A model generated the notes under the pieces. It saw nothing but the letters and a program-made list of their open reading frames with translations, ran no database searches and was not told the origin of the DNA. Below, in pieces: positions 12,934-34,389 of a stretch of DNA of 64,000 nucleotides. The DNA comes from Actinomycetota bacterium. GTDB taxonomy: Bacteria; Actinomycetota; Acidimicrobiia; IMCC26256; PALSA-610. The translations under genes were made by a program, and so were the position numbers. Position 1 is the stretch's first letter, and each line of letters opens with the position of its first letter. The stretch is from contig SXJP01000036.1 of the NCBI GenBank assembly GCA_005779395.1, positions 1,235 through 65,234 of the forward strand. Reading direction: 5' to 3'.

Positions 12934-14819
12934 CCCCGCCCATAGACCCAGTGGCCGAAGAACTTCTTTCGATTCAGCATTCCTACGAGTCGTCTCATCG
13001 CGAAGACGAGTCGGACCAAGACGACGAAGAAATTTCTGGCACGCTCGCTGTACTGCGACTTGGGCTGAAAACAAGCCCAGAACTCAAGCGCGGAATCTGG
13101 ATAACGATTGCGTTCGCGTTCATAGTCGCGTTCGGGCGCTTGCTAATTCCGATACTGATTCAACAAGTACTCGATCGTGGGTTTAGGGGAGGAAAGTTCA
13201 ACGGTTCGTTCGTCTACGCCGCATGTGGTGCTACTGCACTCGCCGTTCTGAGTCTTGCCGCGCTTTCGCGATTGTCGTACATGCGATTGGTGCGTGCTGC
13301 TGAAGCAACGATGTTCGCTCTGCGCGTGCGCGTGTTCGAACACATTCATCGACTTTCGATGGCCGAGCACACTGAGTCGCGCAAGGGCGTACTGGTAGCG
13401 AGAGTCACGAGCGACATCGAAACGCTCGCGCGGTTCGCTCAATGGGGAGGGATTAGCTGGATTATCAACAGTACGGTCATCGTCCTCACCGTCATTGTGA
13501 TGACTACGTATTCGTGGGTGCTGACATTGGTCGTGGTTTTAGCGTTCGTGCCAGCACTTCCAGTCTTGCGGTTTATGCAGCGTCGCCAACTCCGGGCGTA
13601 CGACGAAGTTCGAACGAAAACTGCAGACATGCTCGCTGAGGTATCGGAGATGGTGACTGGTATCGCTGTCGTTCGCGGCTATGGGCTTGAGGCCAGAGCG
13701 CGAACTCGGATACGCCAGCGGATTGAGGCGTTGCTTCGTGCTCACCTTCGGGCGGCACGCTATTTCGCGGCGATGTTCACGATCGGCGACATCTTCGGTT
13801 CGATCGCTCTCGGCGGCGTTACTGCCGTGGCGGTATTTCATGGCGATGTCATTGGTATCGGCCTCGGGGAGACGGTCGCGTTCTTGTTTCTTGTACAAGT
13901 TCTCCTGAACCCAATTGCTGAACTTTCCGAGATTCTTGATCTCACTCAAACCGCCGTGGCTGGGTGGCGCAAAGTGCTTGCAGTGCTCGAGATACCAGTA
14001 GACGTTGCCGATCCGGTTGTTTCGGAAGGCGCGACTCGCAATCCGCTCCCAGACGGTTCTCTTTCTGTGCAAGTAAGGGGCGTTGACTTCGCATATCGGC
14101 AAGGTGATCTCGTTTTGCTTGATGTGTCGGTCGAGATACCTGCTGGTGCTCGAGTCGCGGTGGTCGGCGAGACGGGTTCGGGTAAGACCACTTTCGCGAA
14201 AATCCTGTGTCGTATCGCCGACCCCGTAGCGGGAGTCGTGCTTGTTGGAGGAGTTGCCTTACACGAGGTCGATGGGATGAGTCGGCGTAAAGCAATTCGC
14301 ATGGTTCCACAAGATGGGTTCCTGTTCGACACATCCGTACGCGAAAACGTGCGGTTTGGTAGTCCGGGAGCCTCGGATTCCGAAATAGATGCGGCGTTCT
14401 TGTCTCTTGGGCTGCAGTGGTGGGTCGACGGATTAGTTGACGGGCTCGAAACTGCGGCAGGAGAACGTGGAGACAACCTTTCGGTAGGGGAGCGCCAACT
14501 AGTCGCGTTGGCGCGAGCGCAGCTTTCTGGCGCAGGTCTACTTGTCCTTGATGAGGCAACTAGTGCCGTCGACCCAGAGACAGAACGGGCCTTGTCAGAT
14601 GCGCTCGACCGTCTAGCGGCCGGCCGCACAACGGTGACGATCGCACACCGACTTTCTACAGCAGAGGCGTCTGACCTTGTGTTGGTATTCGACAAGGGCC
14701 GGCTCGTGGAACAAGGTCGGCACGATGACCTATCAGTAGGGGCTGGCACGTACGCAAAGCTGTATCAGAGCTGGCTCGGAAATACCAGAAACCAGGCGAA
14801 CGCGGAGGTAATCGAATGA
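12930..14819 (+). CDS. ABC exporter, fused permease/ATPase (heterodimer partner 2)
   Basis: 629 aa. GETGSGKTT, LSVGERQL, VLDEATS. GTGA overlap with partner 1. Confidence 0.9.
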   Translation: MTPPIDPVAEELLSIQHSYESSHREDESDQDDEEISGTLAVLRLGLKTSPELKRGIWITIAFAFIVAFGRLLIPILIQQVLDRGFRGGKFNGSFVYAACGATALAVLSLAALSRLSYMRLVRAAEATMFALRVRVFEHIHRLSMAEHTESRKGVLVARVTSDIETLARFAQWGGISWIINSTVIVLTVIVMTTYSWVLTLVVVLAFVPALPVLRFMQRRQLRAYDEVRTKTADMLAEVSEMVTGIAVVRGYGLEARARTRIRQRIEALLRAHLRAARYFAAMFTIGDIFGSIALGGVTAVAVFHGDVIGIGLGETVAFLFLVQVLLNPIAELSEILDLTQTAVAGWRKVLAVLEIPVDVADPVVSEGATRNPLPDGSLSVQVRGVDFAYRQGDLVLLDVSVEIPAGARVAVVGETGSGKTTFAKILCRIADPVAGVVLVGGVALHEVDGMSRRKAIRMVPQDGFLFDTSVRENVRFGSPGASDSEIDAAFLSLGLQWWVDGLVDGLETAAGERGDNLSVGERQLVALARAQLSGAGLLVLDEATSAVDPETERALSDALDRLAAGRTTVTIAHRLSTAEASDLVLVFDKGRLVEQGRHDDLSVGAGTYAKLYQSWLGNTRNQANAEVIE

Positions 14820-15511
14820 CGATTGATTGGACGCAGGTTCGGACCCTCACTTTTGATTGCTATGGCACAATCATCGACTGGGAGACAGGCATCGCGAATG
14901 CACTCGCAACGGTTTTTGACAATCACGGTGTCGAATTTGTTCGGCCAGCAGCACTGAGCGCTTTTGCGAAGCATGAGCACGCAGTCGAGGTCGATGGCAT
15001 GTCCTACCGCTCGGTCTTGGCTGCCACTATGACCTTGATCGGTACGGAGTTCGGCTTTGAGCCAAGCGGCAAGGAATGCGCCGACTTTGGAAGTTCCGTA
15101 TCTGATTGGCCACCGTACCCGGATTCAGCGCGTGCTCTGCGAACCCTCGGTGCAAAGTTCGAACTCGTGATTCTGTCGAACATCGATGATGACTTGTTCG
15201 CATTGTCTGCGGCGAAATTGAAAGGCGTTGAGTTCTCGCATGTTGTTACGGCTCAACAGGTTGGTTCATACAAACCAAACCCTGCGCATTTTCACGTCGG
15301 GCTAGAACGCATCGGTCGTCCACAATCCGAGATCGTGCACGTGGCACAAAGCCTGTTCCATGACCACGTCCCCGCCAAGGCAATGGGTTTCACTACCGTC
15401 TGGATCAACAGGCAAGGTGGCGATGGTGCATCGGGGGCAACGCCGCGAGCGACGGCAACGCCAGATCTAGAACTCAGCGATCTCGAATCGCTCGCACGCT
15501 CAGCTACTTAG
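14816..15511 (+). CDS. HAD-superfamily hydrolase (haloacid dehalogenase type II-like)
   Basis: 231 aa. The nucleophile motif FDCYGTIIDWE and the SYKP motif are present. ATGA overlap with the ABC gene. Confidence 0.75.
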   Translation: MTIDWTQVRTLTFDCYGTIIDWETGIANALATVFDNHGVEFVRPAALSAFAKHEHAVEVDGMSYRSVLAATMTLIGTEFGFEPSGKECADFGSSVSDWPPYPDSARALRTLGAKFELVILSNIDDDLFALSAAKLKGVEFSHVVTAQQVGSYKPNPAHFHVGLERIGRPQSEIVHVAQSLFHDHVPAKAMGFTTVWINRQGGDGASGATPRATATPDLELSDLESLARSAT

Positions 15512-21639: not shown

Positions 21640-23013
21640 CTAGCTCGTTTGCGCTACATCGACTACATGCTGGCCTGTGGCAGCACCGAGGGACTTGGCA
21701 TTGCCAAACTCGACGATTGCGCCATTGCGCTGCATAATCGCATAGCCATCACCGGAATTAGACACCACCATGTCGGCGGCGACTTTCGGCTCGCACAACC
21801 CGAGCATCGGAATCGTGCCTACTTCGGCTGCATCGCCGAATGCGCGTGGAACACCCCGCTCATTGAGCAGCCAGTAGCCGTCGCCGGTCGAAGTCATTGC
21901 GATGGCGATAATCGGCGAATTGAGGTTCAAGCGTGACGTGTCTCCGAAGTTCTGTGCACTCCCGAACTTATACACATCGCCACGTTCACTCACTAGCGCA
22001 TAACCGTTACCGGTCGCGACCATGTCGACTATCGGCGACGTGAGTTGGTGATTAGTAGCGGACCCGTAGGACTGTGCTGCGCCGAACGCGTAGACAGCCC
22101 CGTCGTCGGTTGCAAGCCAGAAACCCTTACCGACCTTCGTTGCAGCAATTGCTACGACATTGGCTTGGAATTGCGTCGACTTGATAGCGCCCTCTGTCGT
22201 GGCATCACCGAAGCGATAGACGGTGCCATCAGACGTTGCGATCCAGTACCCAGCACCCGTAGGGGTAGCTGCGATGCCGACGACCGGTGAAGAAACGCCG
22301 CTTGCGTTGCGATCACCAAAGTGGCGAGCAGTCCCGTGTGCTGTGACAGTTCCGTCATCGCTAACCGTCAGGTAACCGGCGATCGTGCCAGCCTGCGGGT
22401 CGGGTGTCGGCGCAGAGTTTGCGGCACAGAGTCCTGCAACCGGAATACCTTGCGCTAGTTGAAGTGATGCGAAAGCGTTGATTGGTTCGCCGTTCGGATC
22501 GCGGATCTCGAAATGGAGATGCGGAACGCTGCTCTCCGCATTTCCACTGTCGCCGAGGTATGCGATGAAGTCACCGCGCTTCACAGTCGCGCCAACTTCT
22601 ATACCTGCAGGGAATCGGTACTTGGGAGGATTCAGCCCATCGTCGGTTCCAGGGGTGTCGTTATTGACGTGCATATAGCTGTACGTCCAGCCATCTGAAT
22701 CTTTGATCTTGATCCAGTTGCCCGCTGTCCCAGCGGCATCGGTCCGTAAGTAAGTGACGGTCGCGTCGCGTGTGGCGACCATGTGGCTAAGGCGTGACCC
22801 AATTAGGTCTTGGCCTTCGTGGAAGCGGGTGCAACCATCGCGACAAGCGCCGTAGGTATCTGAGTAATCGACGTGCTCTGTAACAGGGAAAGTAATGTCG
22901 CGAACCTGCGGAAGTGATGCGTCCGCGCGTGACGCCGGAACGCCAACACCTCCGGCAATGGCAACGCAGGCTGTATAAGCCGCAATGAACAAAAGACTGA
23001 ATCGACGCATCAT
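21640..23013 (-). CDS. Secreted M23-family metallopeptidase with six C-terminal ~40-aa repeats (propeller-like)
   Basis: Signal peptide MMRRFSLLFIAAYTACVAIAGG. M23 motifs FHEGQD and PHLHFEI. Six repeats of G[YF][WA][LI]xxxxGxVxxFGxAxxxG. Confidence 0.8.
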   Translation of the reverse strand: MMRRFSLLFIAAYTACVAIAGGVGVPASRADASLPQVRDITFPVTEHVDYSDTYGACRDGCTRFHEGQDLIGSRLSHMVATRDATVTYLRTDAAGTAGNWIKIKDSDGWTYSYMHVNNDTPGTDDGLNPPKYRFPAGIEVGATVKRGDFIAYLGDSGNAESSVPHLHFEIRDPNGEPINAFASLQLAQGIPVAGLCAANSAPTPDPQAGTIAGYLTVSDDGTVTAHGTARHFGDRNASGVSSPVVGIAATPTGAGYWIATSDGTVYRFGDATTEGAIKSTQFQANVVAIAATKVGKGFWLATDDGAVYAFGAAQSYGSATNHQLTSPIVDMVATGNGYALVSERGDVYKFGSAQNFGDTSRLNLNSPIIAIAMTSTGDGYWLLNERGVPRAFGDAAEVGTIPMLGLCEPKVAADMVVSNSGDGYAIMQRNGAIVEFGNAKSLGAATGQHVVDVAQTS

Positions 23014-23211: not shown

Positions 23212-23252
23212 TTGTGCACAGGCACACAAATCTCAATTGATTGGACAGAGCC

Positions 23253-24476
23253 ATGGGCGATTTTTCTCTTGACCTAAACGACGACCAACTTGAGCTACAA
23301 AAGTGGGTACACGCCTTTTCGCGCGACGTCATTCGACCAGTCGCAGCTGAGTACGACGAGAAGGAAGAAACGCCGTGGCCTGTCATCGAAGAAGCAGCGA
23401 ACATCGGCCTCTATTCGGTTGACTTTGTAACTAACGCGTTCGTCGACCCGACTGGCATCACGTTCCCGATGATCAGCGAAGAATTGAGTTGGGGTGACGC
23501 AGGTATTGCACTCGCGATCATGGGAACCACACTTGGCGTGAGCGGCATCGTTGGTAACGGAACGCCAGAGCAGATCGCAGAGTGGGTTCCCGAGTGTTTC
23601 GGGACGCCGGGCGACATCCACCTCGGAGCCTTCGCCGTTAGCGAACCCGACGCCGGTTCGGATGTCTCGTCACTTCGTACGCGCGCCGTTTACGACCAAG
23701 CGACAGACGAATGGGTCATCAACGGTACGAAGACTTGGATCACCAACGGTGGTATCGACAAGGTCCCGACAGTGCATGTCGTCGTCGCTGCAGTCGAACC
23801 AGAACTCAAGTCGCGCGGCCACGCCTCGTTCGTTGTGCCTCCTGGTACGCCCGGTTGCAGGCAAGGCCAAAAGTTCTCGAAGATGGGAATTCGCGCATCG
23901 CACACCGCCGAGGTCGTGTTCGAGGATTGCCGCGTGCCTGGGCATTGTTTGCTCGGCGGTAAAGAGAAGCTCGACGAGCGTCTCGCTCGCGCTCGCGAGG
24001 GCAAGAGTTCCCGCGTACAAGCAGCGATGAGTACGTTCGAGGCTTCACGGCCACTAGTTGGCGCGCAGGCTCTCGGAATTGCTCGCGCTGCATATGAGTA
24101 TGCACTCGACTACGCGAAAGAGCGCACTGCGTTCAACCGCCCGATCATCATGAACCAGGCAATCGCGTTCAAGCTCGCTGACATGAAAATGCAGATCGAC
24201 GCAGCGCGGCTACTTGTTTGGCGTGCCACCTGGATGGCAGCAGCTAAGAAGCAGTTCGTTTCCGGCGAAGGTTCGATGAGCAAGCTTTATGCTGGCGAGG
24301 TAGCCGTGCGCGTTACCGACGAAGCGATCCAGATTCTCGGTGGCGCCGGCTATGTGAAGGATCACCCTGTCGAACAGTGGCACCGCGACTCGAAGATTTA
24401 CACAATCTTCGAAGGCACGAGCGAGATCCAGCGTTTGGTTATTGCCCGCGCAATCAGCGGTTTGCACATCCCGTAG
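23253..24476 (+). CDS. Acyl-CoA dehydrogenase
   Basis: ATG 23253 (MGDFSLDLNDDQ). Canonical catalytic-base region IFEGTSEIQRLVIAR. Confidence 0.9.
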   Translation: MGDFSLDLNDDQLELQKWVHAFSRDVIRPVAAEYDEKEETPWPVIEEAANIGLYSVDFVTNAFVDPTGITFPMISEELSWGDAGIALAIMGTTLGVSGIVGNGTPEQIAEWVPECFGTPGDIHLGAFAVSEPDAGSDVSSLRTRAVYDQATDEWVINGTKTWITNGGIDKVPTVHVVVAAVEPELKSRGHASFVVPPGTPGCRQGQKFSKMGIRASHTAEVVFEDCRVPGHCLLGGKEKLDERLARAREGKSSRVQAAMSTFEASRPLVGAQALGIARAAYEYALDYAKERTAFNRPIIMNQAIAFKLADMKMQIDAARLLVWRATWMAAAKKQFVSGEGSMSKLYAGEVAVRVTDEAIQILGGAGYVKDHPVEQWHRDSKIYTIFEGTSEIQRLVIARAISGLHIP

Positions 24477-24521: not shown

Positions 24522-25499
24522 TTAGCGTTCGGTGCCTGTTACGACGCGGTCGCTTTCGAGGTCGAACACGTGTCTATCGCCGAAGGTCGTGACTTCGCCC
24601 TTGTCGTCGATGCAGCATGCGTAGGCACTCCCAAGGAGGCTTCGGTAGTGGTCTGTACCGAAATCTTTCAGTTCACCAGAAGCTACAAAAAGTGCCTTAG
24701 TGAGCGCTTCTGCCTGCCAGGCAGAGCCAGCAACGACAGTGGCGGTCAGTAGAGAAGTCGCGACCGGATTCCCGGTGCGGGGATCCACGATGTGGTGCAG
24801 GTGTCTTCCATCGGCCGACTGCCACGCACGGCGAATGCGACTCGAAGTACATACGCCGCCGGATTCGAGTGTTACACGTCCGACTATATGAGTGGCGTCG
24901 TAAGGATCTTCTATGCCGACGATCCAGCCATGGTCATCTGGAGGATCTCCCGCTGCTGCTACGTCGCCCCCGAGATTGACCATGACGCCATCGACCCCAG
25001 AATCCAAGAGTTCACGCACGACTATGTCAGCGGCGAGGCCCTTGCCGATGCCACCGGGATCGAAGCCGACACCGGTGCCGAGGCTGACCGCGTTCAGGTA
25101 AGGATCGAGTCGTATTCCGGCGCATCCAGGCGCAGGCTTTCCGATATGTGCGACGAAGGCCGCACTCTTCGTAACCTCTGGAAAATCTCGGTCGTAGCCG
25201 ATTGAGCAAATGGCATCGATGATCGTCGGGTCATAGCGGCCCGCTGTTTCATCGCATGCGCGGGCCGCTGTTTCCACCAGTCTGAAAGTGTCCGGCGAGA
25301 CGACTACAGGTACCCCACGGTGCGTATTGAGCTTAGAAATCTCGCTACTTGCGCGAAAACGCGACCAACGAGACTCGAGGTGCTCGATGCGTTCTTCGGC
25401 ATAGCGAAGCGCGTCGGCGCATGTGGTGGGGTCGCGTCCAGCCACAACAAGGTGGATGCCACAGCCCATAGCTTGCCAACGGTGCTGCTTAGTCGTCAT
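24522..25499 (-). CDS. apbE: FAD:protein FMN transferase (ApbE family)
   Basis: FDPGGIGKGLAAD, VNLGGD and HHIVDPRTG motifs. Family similarity starts at MTTKQHRWQAMG (ATG 25499). No signal peptide or lipobox is evident. The start overlaps the stop of the upstream gene by 11 nt. Confidence 0.85.
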   Translation of the reverse strand: MTTKQHRWQAMGCGIHLVVAGRDPTTCADALRYAEERIEHLESRWSRFRASSEISKLNTHRGVPVVVSPDTFRLVETAARACDETAGRYDPTIIDAICSIGYDRDFPEVTKSAAFVAHIGKPAPGCAGIRLDPYLNAVSLGTGVGFDPGGIGKGLAADIVVRELLDSGVDGVMVNLGGDVAAAGDPPDDHGWIVGIEDPYDATHIVGRVTLESGGVCTSSRIRRAWQSADGRHLHHIVDPRTGNPVATSLLTATVVAGSAWQAEALTKALFVASGELKDFGTDHYRSLLGSAYACCIDDKGEVTTFGDRHVFDLESDRVVTGTER

Positions 25500-25950
25500 C
25501 TCCGTCTTCGTGGTCTTCGTCTTCGTGGTCTTCGTCTTCGTGGTCTTCGTCTTCGTGGTCTTCGTCTTCGTGGTCTTCGTCTTCGTGGTCTTCGTCTTCG
25601 TGGTCTTCGTCCTCGTGGTCGCCTGAGGCACTAGCACCAGTGGTGGTCGTTACAGAGGGAATTGTTGACTCGACCACAAGTGCTGCTTCGTCGGCGAGCG
25701 ACTCGACTGACTCAGCCGATTCTGGGGATGTCGAGACGAACGGCTGACTCGGATCGTCGATGTAGACCTCGATCACCGTCGGTTCGCCAAGTGCTTGAGT
25801 TGAGTCGCTGGCAGGGACTTCGTCGGCGTTGGTCGAAGCGCTCGGAGCAGTCGCATCGTTGTTTCCCACTGCTGCTACGGCCACTCCACCGAACGCCAGG
25901 GACGCAACTGCTGCGACCGTGATGGCATCGCGCTTTTTCATTGGTTTCAT
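25489..25950 (-). CDS. Membrane-anchored/exported low-complexity protein with a C-terminal (HEDED)n tail
   Basis: 153 aa. N-terminal hydrophobic helix AITVAAVASLAFGGVAVAAV, acidic Ser/Thr-rich body, and a tail of HEDED x7 encoded by a 15-bp tandem repeat. RBS GAAGGGA upstream. Confidence 0.6.
   Translation of the reverse strand: MKPMKKRDAITVAAVASLAFGGVAVAAVGNNDATAPSASTNADEVPASDSTQALGEPTVIEVYIDDPSQPFVSTSPESAESVESLADEAALVVESTIPSVTTTTGASASGDHEDEDHEDEDHEDEDHEDEDHEDEDHEDEDHEDEDHEDGDDD
25504..25620 (-). repeat. 15-bp tandem repeat GTCTTCGTGGTCTTC, 7 perfect units plus 1 variant
   Basis: Read directly from the sequence. On the minus strand it is in frame and encodes (HEDED)n at the C-terminus of the 25489..25950 product. 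Confidence 0.95.
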
Positions 25951-26081
25951 GCTCGTTTCCCTTCTTTAGTGCTTGAGTGTGGGAGCCGTGGACCGACCCC
26001 CTTGGTCGTGTTTGCACCGTAGAAGGGCATCGGCAAAGAGACGGTTTCGATTTATCCAAGAACGATCAAAAACTCATACGA

Positions 26082-26126
26082 GGCGGTTTCTTGGACGTCG
26101 CTTGGAAAAGTGCAGGCCGTTTCTTG
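26082..26126 (+). promoter_or_regulatory. Direct repeat GGC(G/C)GTTTCTTG x2, spaced 33 bp (plus a partial ACGGTTTCGA at 26041)
   Basis: 11/12 identical 12-mers at 26082-26093 and 26115-26126. They lie in the divergent promoter region of the ApbE unit and the MsrQ-like/FGE-like unit. Confidence 0.3.
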
Positions 26127-26181
26127 CCGAGGATGCTCGTATCGTCGAACTAGCAATTCAAAACTGAGGAGGGTCTAACAC

Positions 26182-26598
26182 GTGGCGAAAAGACGCCGAA
26201 CGGCAACACCCACAAAGATCGTTGCAACGTCTGCAACAGTCGCAACAACAATTGCTACGACAGGTGTAATTGCAGCGAACGACGAAATGGCGACGCGAGT
26301 GAAAGGCTTGCAGCCAAAAACTCTTTCGGTACTAGAGCCGCAGACGACAACCGCGATTGCTGCTCCCAAAATCGTGTTTGTGGTGTATAAGAGGCCGAGT
26401 GCCACCGCTGGAGTGTCCGGCGACCCGCAACGGACCACAAATGGAGCGAGCACTAGTACTAACCGAAGTTCAGCCACTGCGAATCCTGGGGCCATTGCGC
26501 CGAGCGACGGTGTCCAGTTGATGACTCCGACCTCCGCTGCACCTCCACCCTCACCTCCGCCGCCACCTCCGCCGACGACGTCAAGCGGCGGAAGTTAG
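26182..26598 (+). CDS. Hypothetical anchored protein with Thr/Ala-rich N-terminus and poly-Pro C-terminus
   Basis: 138 aa. The GTG start lies 8 nt after GAGGAGGG. N-terminus is KRRRTATPTKIVATSATVATTIATTGVIAA and the C-terminus PPPSPPPPPPPTTSSGGS. First gene of a plus-strand unit. Confidence 0.5.
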   Translation: MAKRRRTATPTKIVATSATVATTIATTGVIAANDEMATRVKGLQPKTLSVLEPQTTTAIAAPKIVFVVYKRPSATAGVSGDPQRTTNGASTSTNRSSATANPGAIAPSDGVQLMTPTSAAPPPSPPPPPPPTTSSGGS

Positions 26599-26608
26599 CG
26601 AAGCTGTA

Positions 26609-27196
26609 ATGAATGAACACCTTTGGTGGTACCTGTCGCGCTCGTCAGGAGTCGTTGCATTCGGTGTACTGACTGCCTCAGTCGCTTTCGGTCTTGTGCT
26701 ATCCACCAGGCTGCTCGGGCGCACCGTTGCGCCAGCATGGCTACTGGAGATACACAGGTACCTCGGCGCTGTTGGCCTAGCCGCAACATTGCTACACATG
26801 GGCGCGCTAGTCGCTGACGGTTACACCGACTTTGGTATCAAAGACTTGCTGGTACCGCTGTCGAGCCACTGGAAGCCGGGGCCAGTCGCGTGGGGCGTCG
26901 TCGCGTTTTGGATATTGGTTGCTATCGAAGCGACATCGTTGCTGATGCGCAAGATTCCACGCAACGTGTGGCATGCAGTCCACATGACAAGCTTCCTCCT
27001 TTTCGCGGCTGCGCTCATGCATGGTTTGCAAGCTGGCACGGATGCGAAAACGCGGATGGCTCAAACCATCGCTATTGCCACGACGATGACAGTGCTGTTC
27101 TTGGGGTTAGTGCGTTACCTCGCCCCACCCCGAGCCGCTAGGCGTCTGCGCGCCGCGGCGGCAAAGGCCGCTGAACAAATTTCGGAAGCGTCATGA
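26609..27196 (+). CDS. Ferric-reductase-like transmembrane protein (MsrQ/YedZ-like, predicted di-haem b), no dehydrogenase domain
   Basis: 195 aa, multi-pass. WWYLSRSSGVVAF N-terminus. His49-x13-His63 and His125-x12-His138 match the bis-haem ligand spacing of ferric reductase domains. Confidence 0.75.
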   Translation: MNEHLWWYLSRSSGVVAFGVLTASVAFGLVLSTRLLGRTVAPAWLLEIHRYLGAVGLAATLLHMGALVADGYTDFGIKDLLVPLSSHWKPGPVAWGVVAFWILVAIEATSLLMRKIPRNVWHAVHMTSFLLFAAALMHGLQAGTDAKTRMAQTIAIATTMTVLFLGLVRYLAPPRAARRLRAAAAKAAEQISEAS

Positions 27197-28101
27197 GCGC
27201 TGTTGAGAACGATCATGCTGAGCGCATCGCGAAACTCAAGGCGAGATCGGCGACTCGACAACAGTCGGAGTCGTCGTCAGCGATAGCAGCTAGCGGAACG
27301 CAAGACGTTGCGCTCACAGTCGCGACCGATTCAACCCAAAAGAAACTAAAGCCGGCTTGGAAATCTGTAAAGATCGCCCTCGCCGTCGTTACCTCCGCTT
27401 TGTTGGTGTTGGCCGCCACCACTGCGACTGTGGACTACTACCGGCGAGCACTCGAGGAGCCTGTAGCGGACCCCACAGGAATGGTGTGGATCCCGACGGG
27501 AAAATACCTTGTTGGTTCGATGACACCCGCGCCCGGGGATATCAAGGCTCGATGGATTCAACTTTCTGGCTTTGCAATCGACAAGCGTCCAGTCTCCACG
27601 CTTGAGTTCATGTTCTTCGCCCAAACTCATCAGGACCTAGCTGAGGCCGAGGGTTGGACGGCCCCAGCATCATCACCGGTGTCCCAAGCCGATCGCGCAC
27701 GCAATGTGCCACTCGCGATGGCGTGGGAATACTGCGCGACTCGCAATGGCAGGTTGCCGACAGAAGCGGAGTGGGATATCGCTGCTCGAGGGCGCGATGG
27801 ACGCACCTATCCATGGGGAAACACGCGTTGGAAGAAATCAACGAAGGATGTCAGCCCCTTCGGTATTCGCGCAATGGTCACTGGTGGCATGGAATGGTTA
27901 GGCGACGCGTTGGTTGCCGCTCCCGGTGGCAAGGTCGTGGTGCGCGGCAGGGTAGGGCCACAATCAAGGATCCGCACGATCAACTATCGCGCCGAGGTGA
28001 CCCCAACTGACCCGGATGTCGAAGCAAACGCAGGATTCAGGTGTGCCGCTACGCATATCGCTAGCCGAGCACCTCTATCGCCTGCATTTGGTAGCAACTA
28101 A
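27193..28101 (+). CDS. Single-pass membrane protein with an FGE/SUMF1-like (formylglycine-generating-enzyme family) ectodomain
   Basis: 302 aa. TM helix IALAVVTSALLVLAATTA. MVWIPTGKYLVGS, WEYCATRNGRLPTEAEWDIAARG, YPWGN and GFRCAA motifs. ATGA overlap with the upstream gene. Confidence 0.8.
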   Translation: MSAVENDHAERIAKLKARSATRQQSESSSAIAASGTQDVALTVATDSTQKKLKPAWKSVKIALAVVTSALLVLAATTATVDYYRRALEEPVADPTGMVWIPTGKYLVGSMTPAPGDIKARWIQLSGFAIDKRPVSTLEFMFFAQTHQDLAEAEGWTAPASSPVSQADRARNVPLAMAWEYCATRNGRLPTEAEWDIAARGRDGRTYPWGNTRWKKSTKDVSPFGIRAMVTGGMEWLGDALVAAPGGKVVVRGRVGPQSRIRTINYRAEVTPTDPDVEANAGFRCAATHIASRAPLSPAFGSN

Positions 28102-28107
28102 TTGATG

Positions 28108-28133
28108 CGACAAGCGTTGTCGTCAGCTTGTCG
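28108..28133. terminator. Hairpin CGACAAGC-N10-GCTTGTCG between convergent genes
   Basis: 8-bp perfect stem spanning the gap between the FGE-like gene stop (28101) and the kinase gene stop (28123). No U-tract follows. Confidence 0.35.
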
Positions 28134-29529
28134 ATCGTGCCGCTTGGAGCCGTAGCGACGCGACGAGTCCGCTTCGCTCGCCGCCACCCGCATGTCTAAG
28201 CGTTGCTTCGCCCCGGCAGGTCTGCGCTAAACGTTGTACGACTGCCAGGCCAACTCCATGACCACCCGGCGCGCTGTGTTCGCCGCGCCAGAAGCGGTTG
28301 AAAGCGCGTGTGAGGTCTTCATTGTCGAGACCTGGGCCATCGTCGATGACTTCGCATACTGCCGATTGCCCCAACTCAAATACCTTGACAACAATCCGAG
28401 TTAGTTGTGGGGCGCACTCGAGTGCATTGTCGATGTAGTTGTCGATGATCTCGTCGGCAGCGCCATCAACTGCGCGTGCACCGAGTGAAGCAGGAATATC
28501 ACACGTTAATTCCACCCCAGCTTCCGTGACGAGTGGCTCCCACGCTAGGCATCTGTCGCGTACGACCGCGGCGAGGTCAATATCGACGATAGGCGCGCCG
28601 GTTTGGTCGGAACGCGCTATAGCGAGCAGGCCCTCGACCGTCCGGCTGAGGCGGTGCAATTCGGTGTTGGTGGCTTCTAGAGGTGCCCTGGTCGGAGAAT
28701 CGGGCTCAACCATTGCGAGAATCTGCTCTAGGCGGAGTTGCATAGTCGTGAGAGGTGTGCGCAACTGGTGGCTCACGTCGCCGGTGAATTCGCGTTGTTG
28801 TGCGACGACGCGTTCGAGTTGATCAACCATCGCGTTGAAGTCTTCGCCGAGCGACTTGATTTCAGGAGGGCCATCGGAGACGTTGGCGCGGCTCTTGAAT
28901 TCTCCACCCGCTATGAGGCCGGTCGTGCGACGCAGTTGACGCAACGGTTCGGTGATAGTTCGAGCAAGGACCCAACCCAGTCCTGCTGCGAGGAGTAATG
29001 AAATTAGAGCTGCGATAGCTATGCCTTGCAAGCGAGTGGTTGCTCTCGCTGAAACGTCGCTTGCTGGCCGCGCGAACTCAACTACGCCGATCGTGCGGCT
29101 ACCAGAAAGGACGGGGACGGCAACGTAAAGCATCGAGATACCAGTCTTGGAGTCTGTGCGGGTTCCGCTGTTGCGAATGCCTCGCAGCGCTAACGCGATG
29201 GACTGGTTGGGTTGAGTCGCGATGGGCGCTTGCGTATCGGTGGCGACGAGCAGTTGCGAGTCAGCATCGAATATGGAAATTGCGCTGTTTGATGTCTCGC
29301 TGTAGACCTCGGCGGCTGCTCTCACTTCATCGACTACGAGTTCATTGCCTTCTTCGGCAGCTTCGATGTCCTCTTCTGTCAGCCCCGCCAACGTGAACGC
29401 ATCTCGCTCCATTGACGTTGTCACACGATCGCGCTCTACTGAGCGGAGGTGCGCGACGAGAGGTACGTCGTGTACCAACAACACGAGGAGAGTCAGGCCG
29501 ACGAATACGGCAAGTAGTCGTCTAGTCAT
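28123..29529 (-). CDS. Sensor histidine kinase (two TM segments, HAMP, HisKA, HATPase)
   Basis: 468 aa. H-box FTGDVSHQLRTPL, N-box and G-boxes (DDGPGL, GGHGVGLAV). Confidence 0.9.
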   Translation of the reverse strand: MTRRLLAVFVGLTLLVLLVHDVPLVAHLRSVERDRVTTSMERDAFTLAGLTEEDIEAAEEGNELVVDEVRAAAEVYSETSNSAISIFDADSQLLVATDTQAPIATQPNQSIALALRGIRNSGTRTDSKTGISMLYVAVPVLSGSRTIGVVEFARPASDVSARATTRLQGIAIAALISLLLAAGLGWVLARTITEPLRQLRRTTGLIAGGEFKSRANVSDGPPEIKSLGEDFNAMVDQLERVVAQQREFTGDVSHQLRTPLTTMQLRLEQILAMVEPDSPTRAPLEATNTELHRLSRTVEGLLAIARSDQTGAPIVDIDLAAVVRDRCLAWEPLVTEAGVELTCDIPASLGARAVDGAADEIIDNYIDNALECAPQLTRIVVKVFELGQSAVCEVIDDGPGLDNEDLTRAFNRFWRGEHSAPGGHGVGLAVVQRLAQTCRGEATLRHAGGGERSGLVASLRLQAARSTS

Positions 29530-30218
29530 TCGTTGTTGCGCAATCGGAATCCGACACCTCGTACGGCTTCAATCCAGTTCGGGTCGCCGAGCTTGCGGCG
29601 GATGGCCGCTACATGCGCGTCGAGTGTCTTGGTCGGGCCATACCAGTGCGTGTCCCAGACATGTTCCATGATTTCGTGTCGTTGGCGAACCGCGCCTGCG
29701 TCGCTTGCGAGAAATGCCAGTACGTCGAATTCTTTGGCTGTAAACAGAATTTCCGCGCCATCGAGCGTGACCCTCCTAGTTCTGCGGTCCAAGCAGAGAC
29801 GCCCAGCATCGTCGATTGGTGTGCTGCGTTCGCCCTCGGGATTGCCGGTGGCCAAATCGGGTCTCGAACGACGTTGTACGGCGCGTATCCGCGCGACGAG
29901 TTCGCGACTGCTGAAGGGTTTGACGACGTAGTCATCGGCGCCTTCTTCTAAGCCGAGTACTCGGTCTAGTTCTGCTTCGCGAGCGGTAAGCATGATCACC
30001 GGAACGTCGCTCGTCACGCGTAACCGTCGGCATACTTCATGGCCATCGAGGTCTGGCAAATTGAGATCGAGCAAAACCATGTCCGGCTCGAAGCACACGA
30101 GCGTTTTGAGCGCCTCGCTGCCAGTGGAGCATCGGATCGGATCGAATCCAACTTGGACCAACATCTCAACCAACGTCGCCGCGAGTGCTTCGTCATCCTC
30201 AACAATCAAGATTTTCAC
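29526..30218 (-). CDS. Response regulator, OmpR/PhoB family
   Basis: 230 aa. Receiver MKILIVEDDE...DLNLPDLDG and a winged-helix C-terminus. 4-bp overlap with the kinase gene. Confidence 0.9.
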   Translation of the reverse strand: MKILIVEDDEALAATLVEMLVQVGFDPIRCSTGSEALKTLVCFEPDMVLLDLNLPDLDGHEVCRRLRVTSDVPVIMLTAREAELDRVLGLEEGADDYVVKPFSSRELVARIRAVQRRSRPDLATGNPEGERSTPIDDAGRLCLDRRTRRVTLDGAEILFTAKEFDVLAFLASDAGAVRQRHEIMEHVWDTHWYGPTKTLDAHVAAIRRKLGDPNWIEAVRGVGFRLRNNE

Positions 30219-30331
30219 TGTGTCAGATTCGCGCCGATAAACGCGGCGTTCCTCTGAATTTGACGAATCTTGGATATGTCGTGGGAGCTTCTTCTGTGTT
30301 TGTTCATGTTCTTGCTCGTAAAGTCTTGGGA

Positions 30332-31039
30332 ATGAGGCGTCGCATCACAATCATCCTTGCCGCAACCAGTGTCACGGTCGCGACGGTAGCGGCCGCGTTT
30401 GCGTCGAATGCTGCATTCTCTATCAATGAGGATTCGAGTGTTGCAGCGCCGGTTCCTGGTATTGGCACGGTGCCAGAACTCGACACAAGTGCTTTCGGAA
30501 ACGATGGCATCGAAGGAGTGTTAGTCAAAGACCGGCCGAACGATCACGCGTATGCCGCGGGCGAAGCCGGATGGGTTGTGCTGCGCAATGGCGTCGACGT
30601 CCTGACTCTCGTTGAAGTCGTGCCTAGCTCTGGCTGGCGGACCGACCGAACAACCACGGAACGTCGTCTTGGGATTCCTTTAGTTGAAGTTGTCCTGACG
30701 AAAGGTACTCGCCAAGTCGAGTTCACGGCGTTGCTCGTGGAGGGCGAAATTATTGCCAGAGTTGAACTCGAAGACAAACACGATGAATCGAACGAAAGCG
30801 GCGAAGGCACAGGCGACCACGACGATGACAGCACACCTGCGCACGGGTCGGGTCGCGGGACAAGTGGTGGGTCGGAGGACGACCCCACACCTACCACAGA
30901 TGACGACTTGCAGGGCGCGACCGAGACGACCGACGACGAACATGACGAACATGACGAACATGACGAACCACCGGAACCACCGGAACCACCGGAACCACCG
31001 GAACCACCGGAACCACCGGAACCACCGGAGGTCAACTAG
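30332..31039 (+). CDS. Exported protein with acidic/His-rich C-terminal tail (DEH)3(PPE)7
   Basis: Start chosen at ATG 30332 (MRRRITIILAATSVTVATVAAAFA, signal/anchor). It has a beta-rich central region. The tail is encoded by 9-bp tandem repeats. Confidence 0.6.
   Translation: MRRRITIILAATSVTVATVAAAFASNAAFSINEDSSVAAPVPGIGTVPELDTSAFGNDGIEGVLVKDRPNDHAYAAGEAGWVVLRNGVDVLTLVEVVPSSGWRTDRTTTERRLGIPLVEVVLTKGTRQVEFTALLVEGEIIARVELEDKHDESNESGEGTGDHDDDSTPAHGSGRGTSGGSEDDPTPTTDDDLQGATETTDDEHDEHDEHDEPPEPPEPPEPPEPPEPPEPPEVN
30935..31030 (+). repeat. Two abutting 9-bp tandem repeats: GACGAACAT x3 (+GACGAA), then CCACCGGAA x7
   Basis: Read directly from the sequence. In frame, it encodes DEHDEHDEHDE(PPE)7 at the C-terminus of the 30332..31039 product. 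Confidence 0.95.
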
Positions 31040-32017: not shown

Positions 32018-32767
32018 ATGAGCGAAGTTTCTGGAGCGCCTGAACGCGCTCATCATGCCAACATCAACACCGAATCGAGGCGCCGCAAGGCAGTAAAGAT
32101 TGTCACGATCCTCGAGCGCCGCGCGCCTCTAAAGGCGGCGAACGTGCTCGACATCGGCACGGGCGCCGGAGTTATCGCAGCGACATTCGCCGAGGCAACT
32201 GGACCCGATGGTGCAGTGGAGTCGGTAGACGTCGTCGATGTTCGCGTTGAGATGACCGGTTACAACTACCAGCAGGTCGATGGCACCGAACTGCCGTTCG
32301 CAGATCAGTCGTTTGACTTTGTCGTTTCGAATCATGTGATCGAGCACACCGGTGGGCCAACGGACCAACGTAACCATCTCAGGGAAATCGCGCGGGTGTT
32401 GCGACCCGACGGCGTGGCGTACTTGGCGGTTCCGAATCGTTACGGCCCGATCGAGCCGCACTTCAAGTTGCCCTTGCTCTCATGGTTGCCACAGCGCCTA
32501 GCAGACCGCTACGTACGAGTTGCGCGACGCGGTACCCATTACGACTGTCGTTTGCTCACGCGTAGCGAACTGTCCGCGATGGCGCACTCGGCAGGACTGC
32601 TAGTCGAGGATTGCACATTGGAAGTCACAGGTCTCGTGCGGGACTCCGAAGCCGGAGCGATTGTTCGAGGGCTGCTCAACGCGCCGGACAATGTGTTGCG
32701 TCTCGGGTTGCCGGTAATCCCGACTTTCGTGTTCTTGCTGCGACGCAAAGATGGAAGCGACACCTAA
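32018..32767 (+). CDS. Class I SAM-dependent methyltransferase
   Basis: 249 aa. VLDIGTGAGVIA motif I and FDFVVSNHVIEH. Confidence 0.8.
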   Translation: MSEVSGAPERAHHANINTESRRRKAVKIVTILERRAPLKAANVLDIGTGAGVIAATFAEATGPDGAVESVDVVDVRVEMTGYNYQQVDGTELPFADQSFDFVVSNHVIEHTGGPTDQRNHLREIARVLRPDGVAYLAVPNRYGPIEPHFKLPLLSWLPQRLADRYVRVARRGTHYDCRLLTRSELSAMAHSAGLLVEDCTLEVTGLVRDSEAGAIVRGLLNAPDNVLRLGLPVIPTFVFLLRRKDGSDT

Positions 32768-32958
32768 GGACCGCTCCGATGCGCCACGAGTTTGACTCGT
32801 GGTGTAGTGTGGCACGTCGGTCTTTTTTGACCTTCGTTTCGCTCTCTAGGGCCCCGTTCGATGAAGGGTCCGCCTCGATGGTGTTGCTGAATGTTGGCGC
32901 TGCTCGAGCCGAGTGCGTCCCAACAACCGCCATCGACCCTTATAGGAGCAGTTTCTTC

Positions 32959-34389
32959 GTGTCATTTTCAGATCTCGGCGTTCCAGCCGACCTTGTCGCG
33001 GCACTTGCCGCGCTCAACATCACTGAGCCTTTTCCAATTCAAGCCGCAACAATTGCGGACGCTCTCGCGGGCCGCGACGTATGCGGCAAGGCGCCGACAG
33101 GAAGCGGCAAGACGCTCGCTTTCGGTGTGCCGCTAGTGGCCCGCGTGCCCAAAGCCAAGCCAAGGCGCCCTCGCGCACTCGTCCTCGCACCAACTCGCGA
33201 GCTAGCGGCGCAAATTCAAAAAGAGTTACAGCCACTCGCTGCAGCGCGCGGAATGCGAGTCTTCAGCGTTTACGGCGGCGTGAGCTACGAGCCACAGAAG
33301 CGCGCGATGCGCAACGGTGTCGAAATTCTTGTCGCATGCCCAGGGCGTCTCGAGGATCTCATCGAGCAACGTGCTGTGCGCCTCGACGCTGTAGAGATCA
33401 TGGTCATCGACGAAGCCGACCGCATGGCCGACATGGGCTTCATGCCGTCGGTGTGTCGACTACTCGACCAAACGGCAGAAGACCGCCAGACGATTCTGTT
33501 CTCCGCGACTCTCGATGGCGACATCGCTGTCCTTACTCGTGAGTACCAGAACTCACCGGTGCGTCATGAAGTCGAAGCACCAGAGGATGACTGGGCACTA
33601 GCTGAGCACATCTTCGAAGATCTCGGCCCAGACGACCGGATCGACCGCGCGGCTGCAGTGATAGATGAGTCTGGCCCGACGATTGTGTTCACTCACACGC
33701 GTCGCGGAGCCGACCGTGTTGCCCAGCGTCTAAGTACCGCTGGTGTTGCCGCTGCCCCAATTCATGGAGGGCTTTCTCAGGCTCGACGTGACAAGGCACT
33801 GCATGCATTTCGCAAAGGCCATGTTGCGGCGCTAATTGCCACCGACGTAGCTGCTCGAGGTATTCATGTCAACGACGTTGCGTGCGTATTGCACTTCGAT
33901 CCGCCGGTAGACACCAAGACCTACGTTCACCGATCAGGGCGTACAGCGCGTGCAGGAGCGGCTGGCAAAGTCGTGTCGTTCGTGACACGTGACCAGCGCA
34001 AGGCATCGTTGAGACTGCGTCGCGAGCTTGGCCTCGGTGCTCCCGCTGAGGGAACGAGCCACCGCTCAGAGACATCAGAGAACCACAGCGCGCCGAGCAG
34101 GAATCGTTCCCCGCAGGGTCGCTCGTTCGAGAACCGTTCGTCGGAAGGCCGTAGTAATCGGGGTCGTTCGTCTGAGGGTCGTCGTGAGGGTGGTTTTCAG
34201 GGTCGTTCGAATTCTGAGGGTCGTTCAAACTCGAACTCTGAGGGGCGCGTTTATCAGGGTCGTTCGAACTCGAGCTCGTCTGGCGCGAGTGGTCGCTCTG
34301 GTGGTTACAAGGGCAAGTCGAGTTCCGCGCCGAGTCGTGCTAAGTCTGCGAGCGATCGGGGACGCAAGTCCACGCCGAACAGTCGGTAG
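32959..34389 (+). CDS. DEAD-box ATP-dependent RNA helicase with Arg/Ser/Gly-rich C-terminal tail
   Basis: GTG 32959 lies 9 nt after AGGAGC (VSFSDLGVPADL). Q-motif, APTGSGKTLAF, DEAD, SAT and HRSGRTARAG are present. The ~110-aa tail contains degenerate EGRSN repeats. Confidence 0.9.
   Translation: MSFSDLGVPADLVAALAALNITEPFPIQAATIADALAGRDVCGKAPTGSGKTLAFGVPLVARVPKAKPRRPRALVLAPTRELAAQIQKELQPLAAARGMRVFSVYGGVSYEPQKRAMRNGVEILVACPGRLEDLIEQRAVRLDAVEIMVIDEADRMADMGFMPSVCRLLDQTAEDRQTILFSATLDGDIAVLTREYQNSPVRHEVEAPEDDWALAEHIFEDLGPDDRIDRAAAVIDESGPTIVFTHTRRGADRVAQRLSTAGVAAAPIHGGLSQARRDKALHAFRKGHVAALIATDVAARGIHVNDVACVLHFDPPVDTKTYVHRSGRTARAGAAGKVVSFVTRDQRKASLRLRRELGLGAPAEGTSHRSETSENHSAPSRNRSPQGRSFENRSSEGRSNRGRSSEGRREGGFQGRSNSEGRSNSNSEGRVYQGRSNSSSSGASGRSGGYKGKSSSAPSRAKSASDRGRKSTPNSR

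Follow-up and report, generated by a model that had tools for sequence, protein, structure and literature searches.

A conserved actinobacterial gene module that joins a leaderless ApbE to a predicted di-haem cytochrome and tailed anchored proteins

Introduction

Which protein receives the flavin when an ApbE-family transferase has no export signal and no recognised client beside it, and where would a haem protein encoded with it send electrons? This question is raised by a locus at positions 24522–31039 of a 64,000-nucleotide stretch of DNA from an Actinomycetota bacterium of the class Acidimicrobiia (assembly GCA_005779395.1, contig SXJP01000036.1, positions 1,235 to 65,234; hereafter the window). 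The locus encodes an ApbE-family flavin adenine dinucleotide (FAD):protein flavin mononucleotide (FMN) transferase and a ferric-reductase-like membrane protein, which we call the cytochrome. It also encodes a protein with a domain resembling formylglycine-generating enzyme (FGE), a two-component system, and three proteins with low-complexity tails, here named tailA, tailB and tailC. An earlier note, made from the letters alone, had described the locus as a candidate extracytoplasmic redox and metal module.

Bacteria are known to put a redox cofactor outside the cytoplasm mainly by ApbE-dependent flavinylation. An 'orphan' ApbE without a recognised substrate is found in about 4% of surveyed ApbE-encoding genomes (PMC8238504). 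The same survey defined 'MsrQ-like' clusters, in which a PF01794 gene is clustered with an apbE or FMN_bind gene, and found them broadly conserved in Actinobacteria (Méheust et al. 2021, PMC8238504). Iron reduction was proposed for these clusters, and the substrates of orphan ApbE proteins were still undiscovered (Méheust et al. 2021, PMC8238504). MsrQ-like models also appear in Huang et al. 2024 (PMC11334425). The class is a bioinformatic prediction, and no member has been characterised experimentally. Because ApbE and FMN_bind genes without a predicted signal peptide were dropped from the survey of Méheust et al. (PMC8238504), a variant with a leaderless ApbE was probably missed. Our literature searches for the gene combination of the window found no paper describing it.

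We find that the window carries a specialised form of a four-gene unit that recurs across actinobacterial lineages. We read it as a sub-clade-specific elaboration of a conserved actinobacterial envelope electron-transfer module, mostly of Acidimicrobiia, with FMN on a non-canonical partner and metal reduction outside the membrane. To this reading as a whole we give about an even chance.

Results

A four-gene unit recurs in independent lineages

The comparison set comprised 70 related loci (numbered with the prefix L). Scanning a genome collection with an alignment of the cytochrome yielded 62 loci, nearly all from Acidimicrobiia (Ilumatobacteraceae, Microthrixaceae and Iamiaceae), with a few from Nocardioides, Terrabacter and Streptomyces. 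The relatives were labelled Acidimicrobiia or Actinomycetes. The earlier note had treated the genes as one module, and the neighbourhood proved syntenic in related genomes: the combination recurs in independent lineages with 29–67% protein identity. Judged from these comparisons, the gene combination is far beyond chance.

About 45 loci have the ApbE gene immediately 5′ of the cytochrome gene, in the same orientation, and no FGE-like gene. The next gene 5′ of ApbE is almost always tailB-like, and the one before that tailA-like. The result is a co-directional tailA–tailB–ApbE–cytochrome operon, present in about 45 loci of Ilumatobacteraceae, Microthrixaceae, Iamiaceae, Nocardioides and Terrabacter. 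As read from gene order, the conserved unit is tailA, tailB, ApbE and the cytochrome. The tail proteins were mostly missed by tblastn across lineages owing to their low complexity, and their orthologues were assigned by architecture and position.

The two divergent units described for the window hold for its small sub-clade; in most relatives there is a single operon. The FGE-like protein had been counted as a component of the module, and this did not stand for the core, as the gene occurs in about 7 of about 60 related loci (about 7 lineages). Both the FGE-like protein and the divergent split are specialisations of the window's sub-clade. Few proteins are close to the FGE-like protein: five exceed 40% identity, and a few more have 29–35%. 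The arrangement is the same wherever the contig suffices. In L004, ApbE–tailA is divergent from tailB–cytochrome–FGE, and L005, L006, L009, L071 and L072 have a matching layout. The FGE-like gene adjoins the cytochrome in L004, L005, L006, L009 and L071. A kinase–regulator pair and a tailC orthologue are also retained in L006 and L072.

At the other end of the range, the operon of Ilumatobacteraceae stops at the cytochrome. The next gene resembles a pyrF-type housekeeping gene, and the operon has no dedicated terminal reductase gene. Elsewhere, a DUF2231 membrane protein follows the cytochrome in the operon of L073 (7629–8171), and a DUF2231 homologue lies 4.6 kb upstream in L052.

Conserved histidines point to a di-haem cytochrome

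The cytochrome matched Ferric_reduct (PF01794) with 31.9 bits against a cutoff of 28. As proposed earlier, the Pfam search found no nicotinamide nucleotide (NAD(P)H)/FAD domain in the window protein; it found no FMN_bind domain either. Four histidines (H49, H63, H125 and H138) were kept in 63/63 aligned locus sequences. Among 120 database homologues, H49, H63 and H138 were invariant and H125 was at least 90% conserved. The residues form pairs on two transmembrane (TM) helices, with spacings of 14 (H49/H63) and 13 (H125/H138). The haem ligands of NOX2 and other NOX proteins are likewise spaced by 14 and 13. The four histidines are thus predicted to be placed so as to bind two stacked haems.

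The AlphaFold2 (AF2) model, with a predicted local distance difference test score (pLDDT) of 95, contained five TM helices, not six, and a basic C-terminal helix. The best eight Foldseek matches were all haem domains of NOX5, SpNOX, STEAP or DUOX, with TM-scores of 0.46–0.61 and weak E-values of 0.019–0.17. The TM domain of NOX5 gave a TM-score of 0.59, also with a weak E-value.

All 120 database homologues are stand-alone proteins of about 185–280 aa without an FMN_bind or NAD domain, and source annotations call the cytochrome homologues 'YedZ/MsrQ'. Among the scanned loci, the cytochromes of Terrabacter terrigena CCUG 57508 (L056) and Streptomyces sp. (L061) are fused to FAD_binding_6, NAD_binding_1 and Fer2 domains (Pfam). 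The cytochrome in a Nocardioides metagenome-assembled genome (MAG; L054) has about 548 aa, similar to the fused Terrabacter form, and this length suggests the same FAD/NAD/Fer2 fusion. L054 and L056 carry tailA, tailB and ApbE beside the cytochrome; the Streptomyces locus has tailA but no adjacent ApbE. All three belong to actinomycetes that are cultured or culturable. Given the fused domains of these relatives, the expected electron flow is from the cytoplasm to the outside. Since the fused entry domain is missing from the Acidimicrobiia cytochrome, its electrons must come from another donor.

The ApbE clade has no export signal

ApbE matched PF02424 with an E-value of 2.9e-54 over profile positions 1–247 of 266. 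Its best solved relative is TM1553 of Thermotoga maritima (E 1.4e-25), and relatives in the Protein Data Bank (PDB) ranged from 1e-25 to 1e-16. The DPT, GGIxKG, GGD, TS and HHIxDPxTG motifs align with those of T. maritima TM1553 and Listeria FmnB. ApbE retains the FAD- and Mg-site motifs of its family and is a putative transferase.

The earlier note had found neither a signal peptide nor a lipobox, and we agree: the window protein contains no hydrophobic 19-mer. A signal peptide or hydrophobic leader was present in 0/120 of the closest ApbE homologues. These share a conserved N-terminal MG[T/C/S] motif at residues 1–21, and the domain begins at residues 1–21. A search of the in-frame sequence upstream of ApbE for a hidden signal peptide found none. 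The clade is presumably cytoplasmic, as judged from these N-termini.

We also considered whether ApbE could be anchored by a frameshift fusion to tailA or tailB. This was rejected: stop codons part the genes in all lineages at variable spacing, and 0/120 homologues are fused. The long alternative-frame open reading frames (ORFs) upstream of ApbE arise because of the repeats and the high-GC composition.

The tail proteins share architecture and vary in chemistry

No Pfam or NCBIfam family was found for tailA, tailB or tailC in the several lineages searched. By hydropathy, tailA, tailB, tailC and the FGE-like protein have a single hydrophobic segment, N-terminal in each; the kinase has two and ApbE none.

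TailA consists of a hydrophobic segment (residues 10–28), an acidic beta-strand (VIEVYIDD), a Thr-rich linker (TTTTGASAS), the (HEDED)7 tail and a DDD end; it contains 49 Asp and Glu residues and 8 His. The (HEDED)7 tail, noticed earlier, is encoded by a perfect 15-nt tandem repeat with a Tandem Repeats Finder (TRF) score of 230. Orthologues in L004, L006, L009 and L072 have the same architecture, and tailA-like genes head the co-directional operons. The general plan is an M-x-R-R-x-A-[IL]-T anchor, a short acidic beta-strand and a tail that ends in runs of His, Asp and Glu. Weak NCBIfam matches of tailA to ZnuA and ZrgA were set aside as mere His/Asp/Glu composition.

The repeats differ in number between otherwise identical assemblies. 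TailA has 153 aa in the window and in L002 and 128 aa in L001, whereas tailC of L002 has 247 aa and that of L001 has 235 aa. The tails thus vary in length within the population.

In tailB, the basic N-terminus leads into a weak TM segment; after it come the basic beta-strand KIVFVVYKR and a run of Pro, and the protein ends in PPPTTSSGGS. TailB-like proteins follow the same plan, with one TM segment, a short basic beta-strand and a Pro or Ala-Pro stalk after the basic N-terminus. In L004, L005, L006, L009, L071 and L072, this plus-strand frame is uninterrupted and its product has matching N- and C-terminal features. The public annotation of MAG GCA_005790985.1 places a 100-aa gene on the opposite strand (window 26175–26495, minus; 8983–9285 in L001 and L002), and a hypothetical gene is also called on the opposite strand over tailB in L005 and L071. 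Because the plus-strand frame is conserved across lineages, tailB is probably mis-annotated or missing in databases.

In Ilumatobacteraceae (L029, L035–L051, L065 and L068), both tails end in Cys pairs, which replace the His/acidic or SGGS ends. TailB there ends in (AP)n-PPPC-x-G-S-x-C, with Ala-Pro stalks that can surpass 100 residues, and tailA ends in PIPPGC-x9-10-C followed by acidic residues.

TailC has one N-terminal hydrophobic segment with a signal peptide (AFA/SNAAFS), a beta-rich domain of about 90 aa, an acidic/His region and the repeats, with 51 Asp and Glu residues in all. Its (DEH)3(PPE)7 tail, also noticed earlier, is encoded by perfect 9-nt tandem repeats. Among 1.84 billion proteins, relatives of the domain of about 90 aa amounted to only 30 cluster representatives at E<=1e-3; some of them carry 2–4 copies. 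When ten tailC relatives were scanned, 0/10 had a Pfam match at the curated cutoff over the shared domain. TailC orthologues adjoin the regulator gene in L006 and L072.

From their composition, the His/Asp/Glu tails may reasonably be expected to bind divalent metal.

No canonical ApbE client is encoded, and tailB offers a candidate site

The earlier note had remarked on the missing FMN-binding client, and the wider search bore it out. FMN_bind, DUF2271, DUF3570 and NqrB/RnfD were absent from the eight products and from the precomputed Pfam hits within 10 kb on either side. Six related neighbourhoods with Pfam annotation likewise contained no FMN_bind, DUF2271, DUF3570 or NqrB/RnfD domain. The MsrP family was found neither among the precomputed Pfam hits within 10 kb on either side nor in the annotated related neighbourhoods.

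ApbE canonically recognises D-x-x-[S/T]-G-A-[S/T] (PMC12052999). Three candidate sites in the module were examined and rejected. In TTTGASAS of tailA, TGAS becomes TGPS or TGGS in orthologues; DDDLQGAT of tailC is not kept in the L006 orthologue; and no Ser or Thr position of the cytochrome is specific to ApbE-linked loci. Only two proteins of the 64-kb window, an enoyl-CoA hydratase and a HAD hydrolase, contain the full canonical motif, and both matches are probably due to chance. In the HAD hydrolase (14816–15511, plus strand; PF00702/PF13419), the motif D-G-A-S-G-A-T lies about 25 residues from the C-terminus, outside the HAD domain; chance is the likely reason, although the ApbE of the window is presumably cytoplasmic.

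A different pattern emerged at the C-terminus of tailB, where [S/T/C]-x-[G/A]-S followed by 0–4 residues was found in 31/33 tabulated loci. The proteins end in SSGGS, TGGS(G), SAGS, SHGS, SRAS or THASPPP, and those of Ilumatobacteraceae in C[TQES]GS[GKQT]C. The motif does not depend on which of ApbE and the cytochrome is encoded next, and loci with no ApbE alongside have it as well. In sequence it is similar to [S/T]-G-A-[S/T], the central part of the ApbE motif. Mutagenesis has shown that ApbE accepts substitutions of the Asp, Gly and Ala, and a seven-residue tag suffices, best at a protein terminus (PMC12052999). The C-terminal Ser of tailB is the leading candidate for the ApbE target, and a weak one.

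The FGE-like protein retains the fold and lacks the catalytic cysteines

PF03781 matched the FGE-like protein with an E-value of 1.3e-19 over profile positions 3–139 of 255 only. The protein has a cytoplasmic N-terminal helix (ERIAKLKAR), a TM segment at residues 61–79 and a trimmed FGE-fold ectodomain. The AF2 model (pLDDT 87.6) likewise showed an N-terminal helix, one TM helix and an FGE-fold ectodomain. The top Foldseek matches of the ectodomain were FGE, its paralogue pFGE, ToxD, OvsA and EgtB, and the closest sequence match in the PDB was SUMF2/pFGE (E 1.3e-13).

The positions of Cys336 and Cys341 of human FGE are occupied by Thr and Ala in the aligned window protein. In the subfamily alignment we found no conserved Cys pair, no subfamily-specific Cys or His and no alternative metal ligands; only general fold residues are kept. 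An active oxidase was rejected on these grounds, the catalytic Cys pair being gone and the nearest relative being pFGE. By its sequence, the protein is an FGE fold but not an FGE, and it is probably a binding or docking module rather than an FGE-type enzyme. In longer orthologues (500–528 aa) an extra C-terminal domain follows, for which the 3-keto-disaccharide hydrolase family scored below the Pfam threshold (E 0.038).

We observed a helix motif, [DE]-x-x-x-R-[IL]-A-[KR]-L-x-x-R, at the N-terminus of the FGE-like protein (window 27193–27280; also L006 and L071). In Ilumatobacteraceae it is tailB that bears this motif (N-termini in L035, L051 and L015), so that each system has it on a single one of its single-pass partners. 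It may serve for docking at the cytoplasmic face.

Layout of the locus and its neighbours

The eight ORFs of the earlier note were all present in the sequence at its coordinates, and its calls for ApbE, Ferric_reduct, FGE-sulfatase, kinase and regulator were upheld by Pfam search (Table 1). The locus proteins are 100% identical to those of MAG GCA_005790985.1.

Table 1. Features of the locus, with window coordinates.
Feature	Position	Strand	Basis or remark
ApbE-family FAD:protein FMN transferase, leaderless	24522..25499	-	PF02424; 325 aa from ATG 25499 or 315 aa from ATG 25469
tailA, signal-anchored or secreted, 153 aa	25489..25950	-	one N-terminal hydrophobic segment, acidic/His tail
HEDED-coding 15-nt tandem repeat	25499..25620	.	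TRF, 8.1 copies
Divergent intergenic region between the tailA–ApbE unit and the tailB–cytochrome–FGE unit	25951..26181	.	sequence read
tailB, anchored Pro-rich protein, 138 aa	26182..26598	+	frame intact in six other lineages
Stand-alone di-haem 'MsrQ-like' cytochrome (predicted), 195 aa	26609..27196	+	PF01794
FGE-fold single-pass protein, 302 aa	27193..28101	+	PF03781, partial
Sensor histidine kinase	28123..29529	-	HAMP-HisKA-HATPase_c by Pfam
OmpR/PhoB-type response regulator	29526..30218	-	Response_reg and Trans_reg_C by Pfam
tailC, secreted protein	30296..31039	+	likely start 30296 or 30332
Two abutting 9-nt tandem repeats, GACGAACAT x3.8 and GAACCACCG x7.2	30935..31029	.	TRF

The 11-nt overlap of tailA and apbE (ATGACGACTAA), described earlier, is read in the sequence and disappears if ApbE starts at the alternative ATG 30 nt downstream (25469), which public gene callers choose. 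The ATGA overlap between the cytochrome stop and the FGE-like start at 27193 was read directly from the sequence. For tailC, a start at 30185 was revised to the likelier positions in Table 1. TailB starts with GTG, and GGAGG stands 8 nt 5′ of it. The ApbE gene is 1.1 kb from the cytochrome gene in the window. A scan for consensus promoters and terminators found nothing exceeding the expectation from shuffled sequence.

The convergent kinase and OmpR-type regulator pair was borne out by HAMP, HisKA and HATPase_c matches in the one and Response_reg and Trans_reg_C in the other. The two genes overlap by 4 nt. The kinase has TM segments at residues 7–25 and 170–188 that enclose an extracytoplasmic loop of about 140 aa. 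No NCBIfam equivalog reached its cutoff for either protein; the best for the kinase, a heavy-metal sensor kinase subfamily, was far below cutoff and is at most a hint. Homologues beside the module in L006, L027, L052 and L059 have 35–51% identity for the kinase and 58–70% for the regulator, and kinase genes were also called in L072 and L073. The co-directional core operon, too, often has an orthologous two-component system as its neighbour, in several families.

Among the neighbours, an acyl-CoA dehydrogenase gene adjoins ApbE both in the window (23241–24476, plus strand) and in the distant relative L071 (3512–4702), which is probably residual synteny rather than a functional link. An exported M23-peptidase-like protein with a long repeat-rich C-terminal region is encoded at 21640–23013 (minus strand), and a DEAD-box helicase with an Arg/Ser/Gly-rich low-complexity tail at 32611–34389 (plus strand). 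Low-complexity tails seem common in the genome of the window, as far as its sequence indicates.

Discussion

Proposed mechanism and alternatives

In the mechanism we propose, the cytochrome would carry electrons from the cytoplasmic side of the membrane to its outer face. The donor would be NAD(P)H in the Terrabacter and Nocardioides relatives, via the fused FAD/NAD/2Fe-2S domain, and here probably menaquinol or a separate reductase. ApbE would covalently attach FMN to a non-canonical partner, most probably a tail protein, with the conserved C-terminal Ser of tailB as the first candidate. The acidic/His or Cys-pair tails would capture a cationic acceptor, for example Fe(III) or Cu(II), which would be reduced outside the membrane. 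The OmpR-type two-component system would control expression, and secreted tailC could serve as an accessory sensor. In the sub-clade of the window, the pFGE-like ectodomain protein, translationally coupled to the cytochrome, would probably act in binding or docking. Overall, we infer, the module would reduce a substrate outside the cytoplasm, Fe(III) or Cu(II) being the simplest choice. The Ilumatobacteraceae operon, with no dedicated terminal reductase gene, fits extracytoplasmic metal reduction, and the iron reduction proposed for MsrQ-like clusters (PMC8238504) is in agreement with it.

A bolder form of this mechanism makes tailB a natural 'flavin tag'. It would be a new kind of ApbE substrate, in which one Ser of a minimal [S/T]-x-[G/A]-S motif at the very C-terminus is flavinylated in the cytoplasm by the neighbouring leaderless ApbE, and the Pro-rich stalk would then be exported. 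The product would be a flexible tethered rod with one FMN, flanked by a Cys pair in Ilumatobacteraceae, that shuttles electrons from the outer haem through the cell wall to tail-held metal ions. We regard this specific version as quite unlikely.

Several observations weigh against FMN on a tail protein with metal reduction outside. No module protein has a conserved canonical D-x-x-[S/T]-G-A-[S/T] motif. A leaderless ApbE would reach an exported Ser only if modification came before translocation. The Ser codon at the end of tailB is AGY in 32/33 loci and AGT in 18, and the start of the next gene comes shortly after purine-rich codons, for example GGA-AGT or GGG-AGC. AGT is expected to be rare in G+C-rich genomes. 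Judged from these codons, part of the tailB 'motif' may be an embedded ribosome-binding site; the THASPPP, SHGS and SRAS variants are not explained in that way. In addition, lineages differ in tail chemistry, which may be His/Asp/Glu, Ser/Gly or Cys pairs, and any model with a single metal is weaker for it.

The presumed location of ApbE leads to a rival in which it flavinylates a cytoplasm-facing segment. This could be a cytochrome loop, the cytochrome tail, or the helix at the N-terminus of tailB or of the FGE-like protein. The flavin would then be the electron entry that in Acidimicrobiia replaces the FAD/NAD domain fused to the cytochrome of other actinobacteria, and the tails would be metal-capturing or structural. 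The 0/120 export signals among ApbE homologues agree with this, as does Klebsiella, which has cytoplasmic ApbE enzymes with cytoplasmic clients (PMC12052999). So do the Acidimicrobiia cytochromes, which lack the FAD/NAD/Fer2 domain of the Terrabacter, Streptomyces and, probably, Nocardioides relatives, and the conserved cytoplasmic helix motif (ERIAKLKAR or EQQLARLAKL) on one single-pass partner per system. However, Terrabacter, and probably Nocardioides, have the fused FAD/NAD/Fer2 domain plus ApbE, so that ApbE is no simple substitute for it. Moreover, no cytochrome Ser or Thr is conserved specifically in ApbE-linked loci, and no flavinylation-like motif is conserved in the cytoplasmic segments. 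We consider this rival unlikely. The client could instead be a canonical FMN_bind, DUF2271, DUF3570 or NqrB/RnfD-type protein encoded elsewhere, the linkage reflecting a shared pathway or regulon and the tails being unrelated to flavin. An FMN_bind gene is present in typical MsrQ-like clusters (PMC8238504), and our Pfam family check reached only 10 kb on either side of the locus. Yet ApbE stands between tailB and the cytochrome, with adjacent or overlapping stops and starts, in about 45 loci of several families, as genes for subunits of a single complex typically do. Nor did FMN_bind appear in the Pfam-annotated neighbourhoods inspected, and 120/120 cytochrome homologues are without an FMN_bind fusion. 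A client elsewhere is, in our judgement, rather doubtful.

The annotation of cytochrome homologues as 'YedZ/MsrQ' and the FGE fold of the ectodomain could suggest MsrPQ-like or FGE-type maturation or repair. The cytochrome would feed a periplasmic-type oxidoreductase, and the FGE-like domain would be a copper oxidase that modifies exported proteins, forming formylglycine or something similar. This is largely refuted by the missing Cys pair: both catalytic copper-binding Cys are replaced, the nearest solved relative is the inactive pFGE, and there are no alternative metal ligands. No annotated neighbourhood contains an MsrP-type molybdoenzyme, and most related modules lack the FGE-like gene. 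We hold this explanation to be highly improbable.

Whichever protein carries the flavin, the module is a concrete and widespread case of an orphan ApbE: it spans Acidimicrobiia that abound in soil, freshwater and activated sludge, and it also occurs in cultured Terrabacter. Flavinylation of a tail, if true, would define a new minimal class of ApbE substrate, useful for flavin-tagging technology. Flavinylation of a cytoplasmic segment would mean a cytoplasmic role of ApbE in feeding a NOX-like cytochrome. In either case a conserved redox system of the actinobacterial envelope would gain a function. Should the client prove to be a common FMN_bind protein from another part of the genome, the locus would be no more than an atypical case of a class already predicted. 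The cultured carrier Terrabacter terrigena CCUG 57508 offers a tractable route to the ApbE substrate.

Comparison with known systems

The earlier note could not map the gene combination onto MsrPQ, Nqr/Rnf or Listeria-type extracellular electron transfer (EET). That part stands, and the locus nevertheless falls, as an atypical member, within the definition of the 'MsrQ-like' flavinylation-associated class.

Escherichia coli MsrPQ (YedYZ) resembles the module in having a membrane subunit of the PF01794 superfamily that passes electrons outward. It differs in its MsrP molybdoenzyme partner, which is absent from the annotated related loci. MsrPQ is not known to involve ApbE. With NOX, SpNOX, STEAP and FRE proteins, the cytochrome shares two His pairs on two helices at 14/13 spacing, and some actinobacterial relatives share the fused FAD/NAD domains. 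In contrast, the window protein is a haem domain alone, with five helices where these proteins have six and with neither a flavin nor an NAD(P)H domain, and its Foldseek E-values to these proteins are at least 0.019.

Listeria EET (FmnB/PplA/EetAB/Ndh2) also combines an ApbE-family enzyme with a tethered extracytoplasmic protein proposed to hold covalent flavin, in a monoderm envelope. However, FmnB is exported, PplA has canonical FMN_bind domains, and the route is quinone-based without a PF01794 cytochrome; none of its genes is found here. The cytoplasmic ApbE of Klebsiella pneumoniae (cited in PMC12052999) has no signal peptide and acts in the cytoplasm, like that proposed for the window. 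Its client is a soluble fumarate reductase with a canonical FMN_bind domain and motif, whereas the ApbE-linked genes of the window encode membrane or exported proteins without an FMN_bind domain. For the ectodomain, pFGE/SUMF2 (PDB 1Y4J) is the best solved sequence relative and has an FGE fold without the catalytic Cys pair. It is a eukaryotic protein of the endoplasmic reticulum, whereas the domain in the window is anchored in the membrane, is shorter and has its gene translationally coupled to that of the cytochrome.

The closest parallel is with the MsrQ-like clusters, which likewise combine a PF01794 di-haem membrane protein with apbE, mainly in Actinobacteria, and for which outward electron transfer, possibly in assimilatory iron reduction, has been proposed. 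The C-terminal NAD-binding domain typical of them is found in the Terrabacter and, probably, the Nocardioides relatives of the module. The window departs from these clusters in that FMN_bind is missing both as a gene and as a fusion, the NAD-binding domain is absent and ApbE has no leader. It adds two conserved tail proteins outside Pfam, to which its sub-clade adds the pFGE-like ectodomain and a third tail protein.

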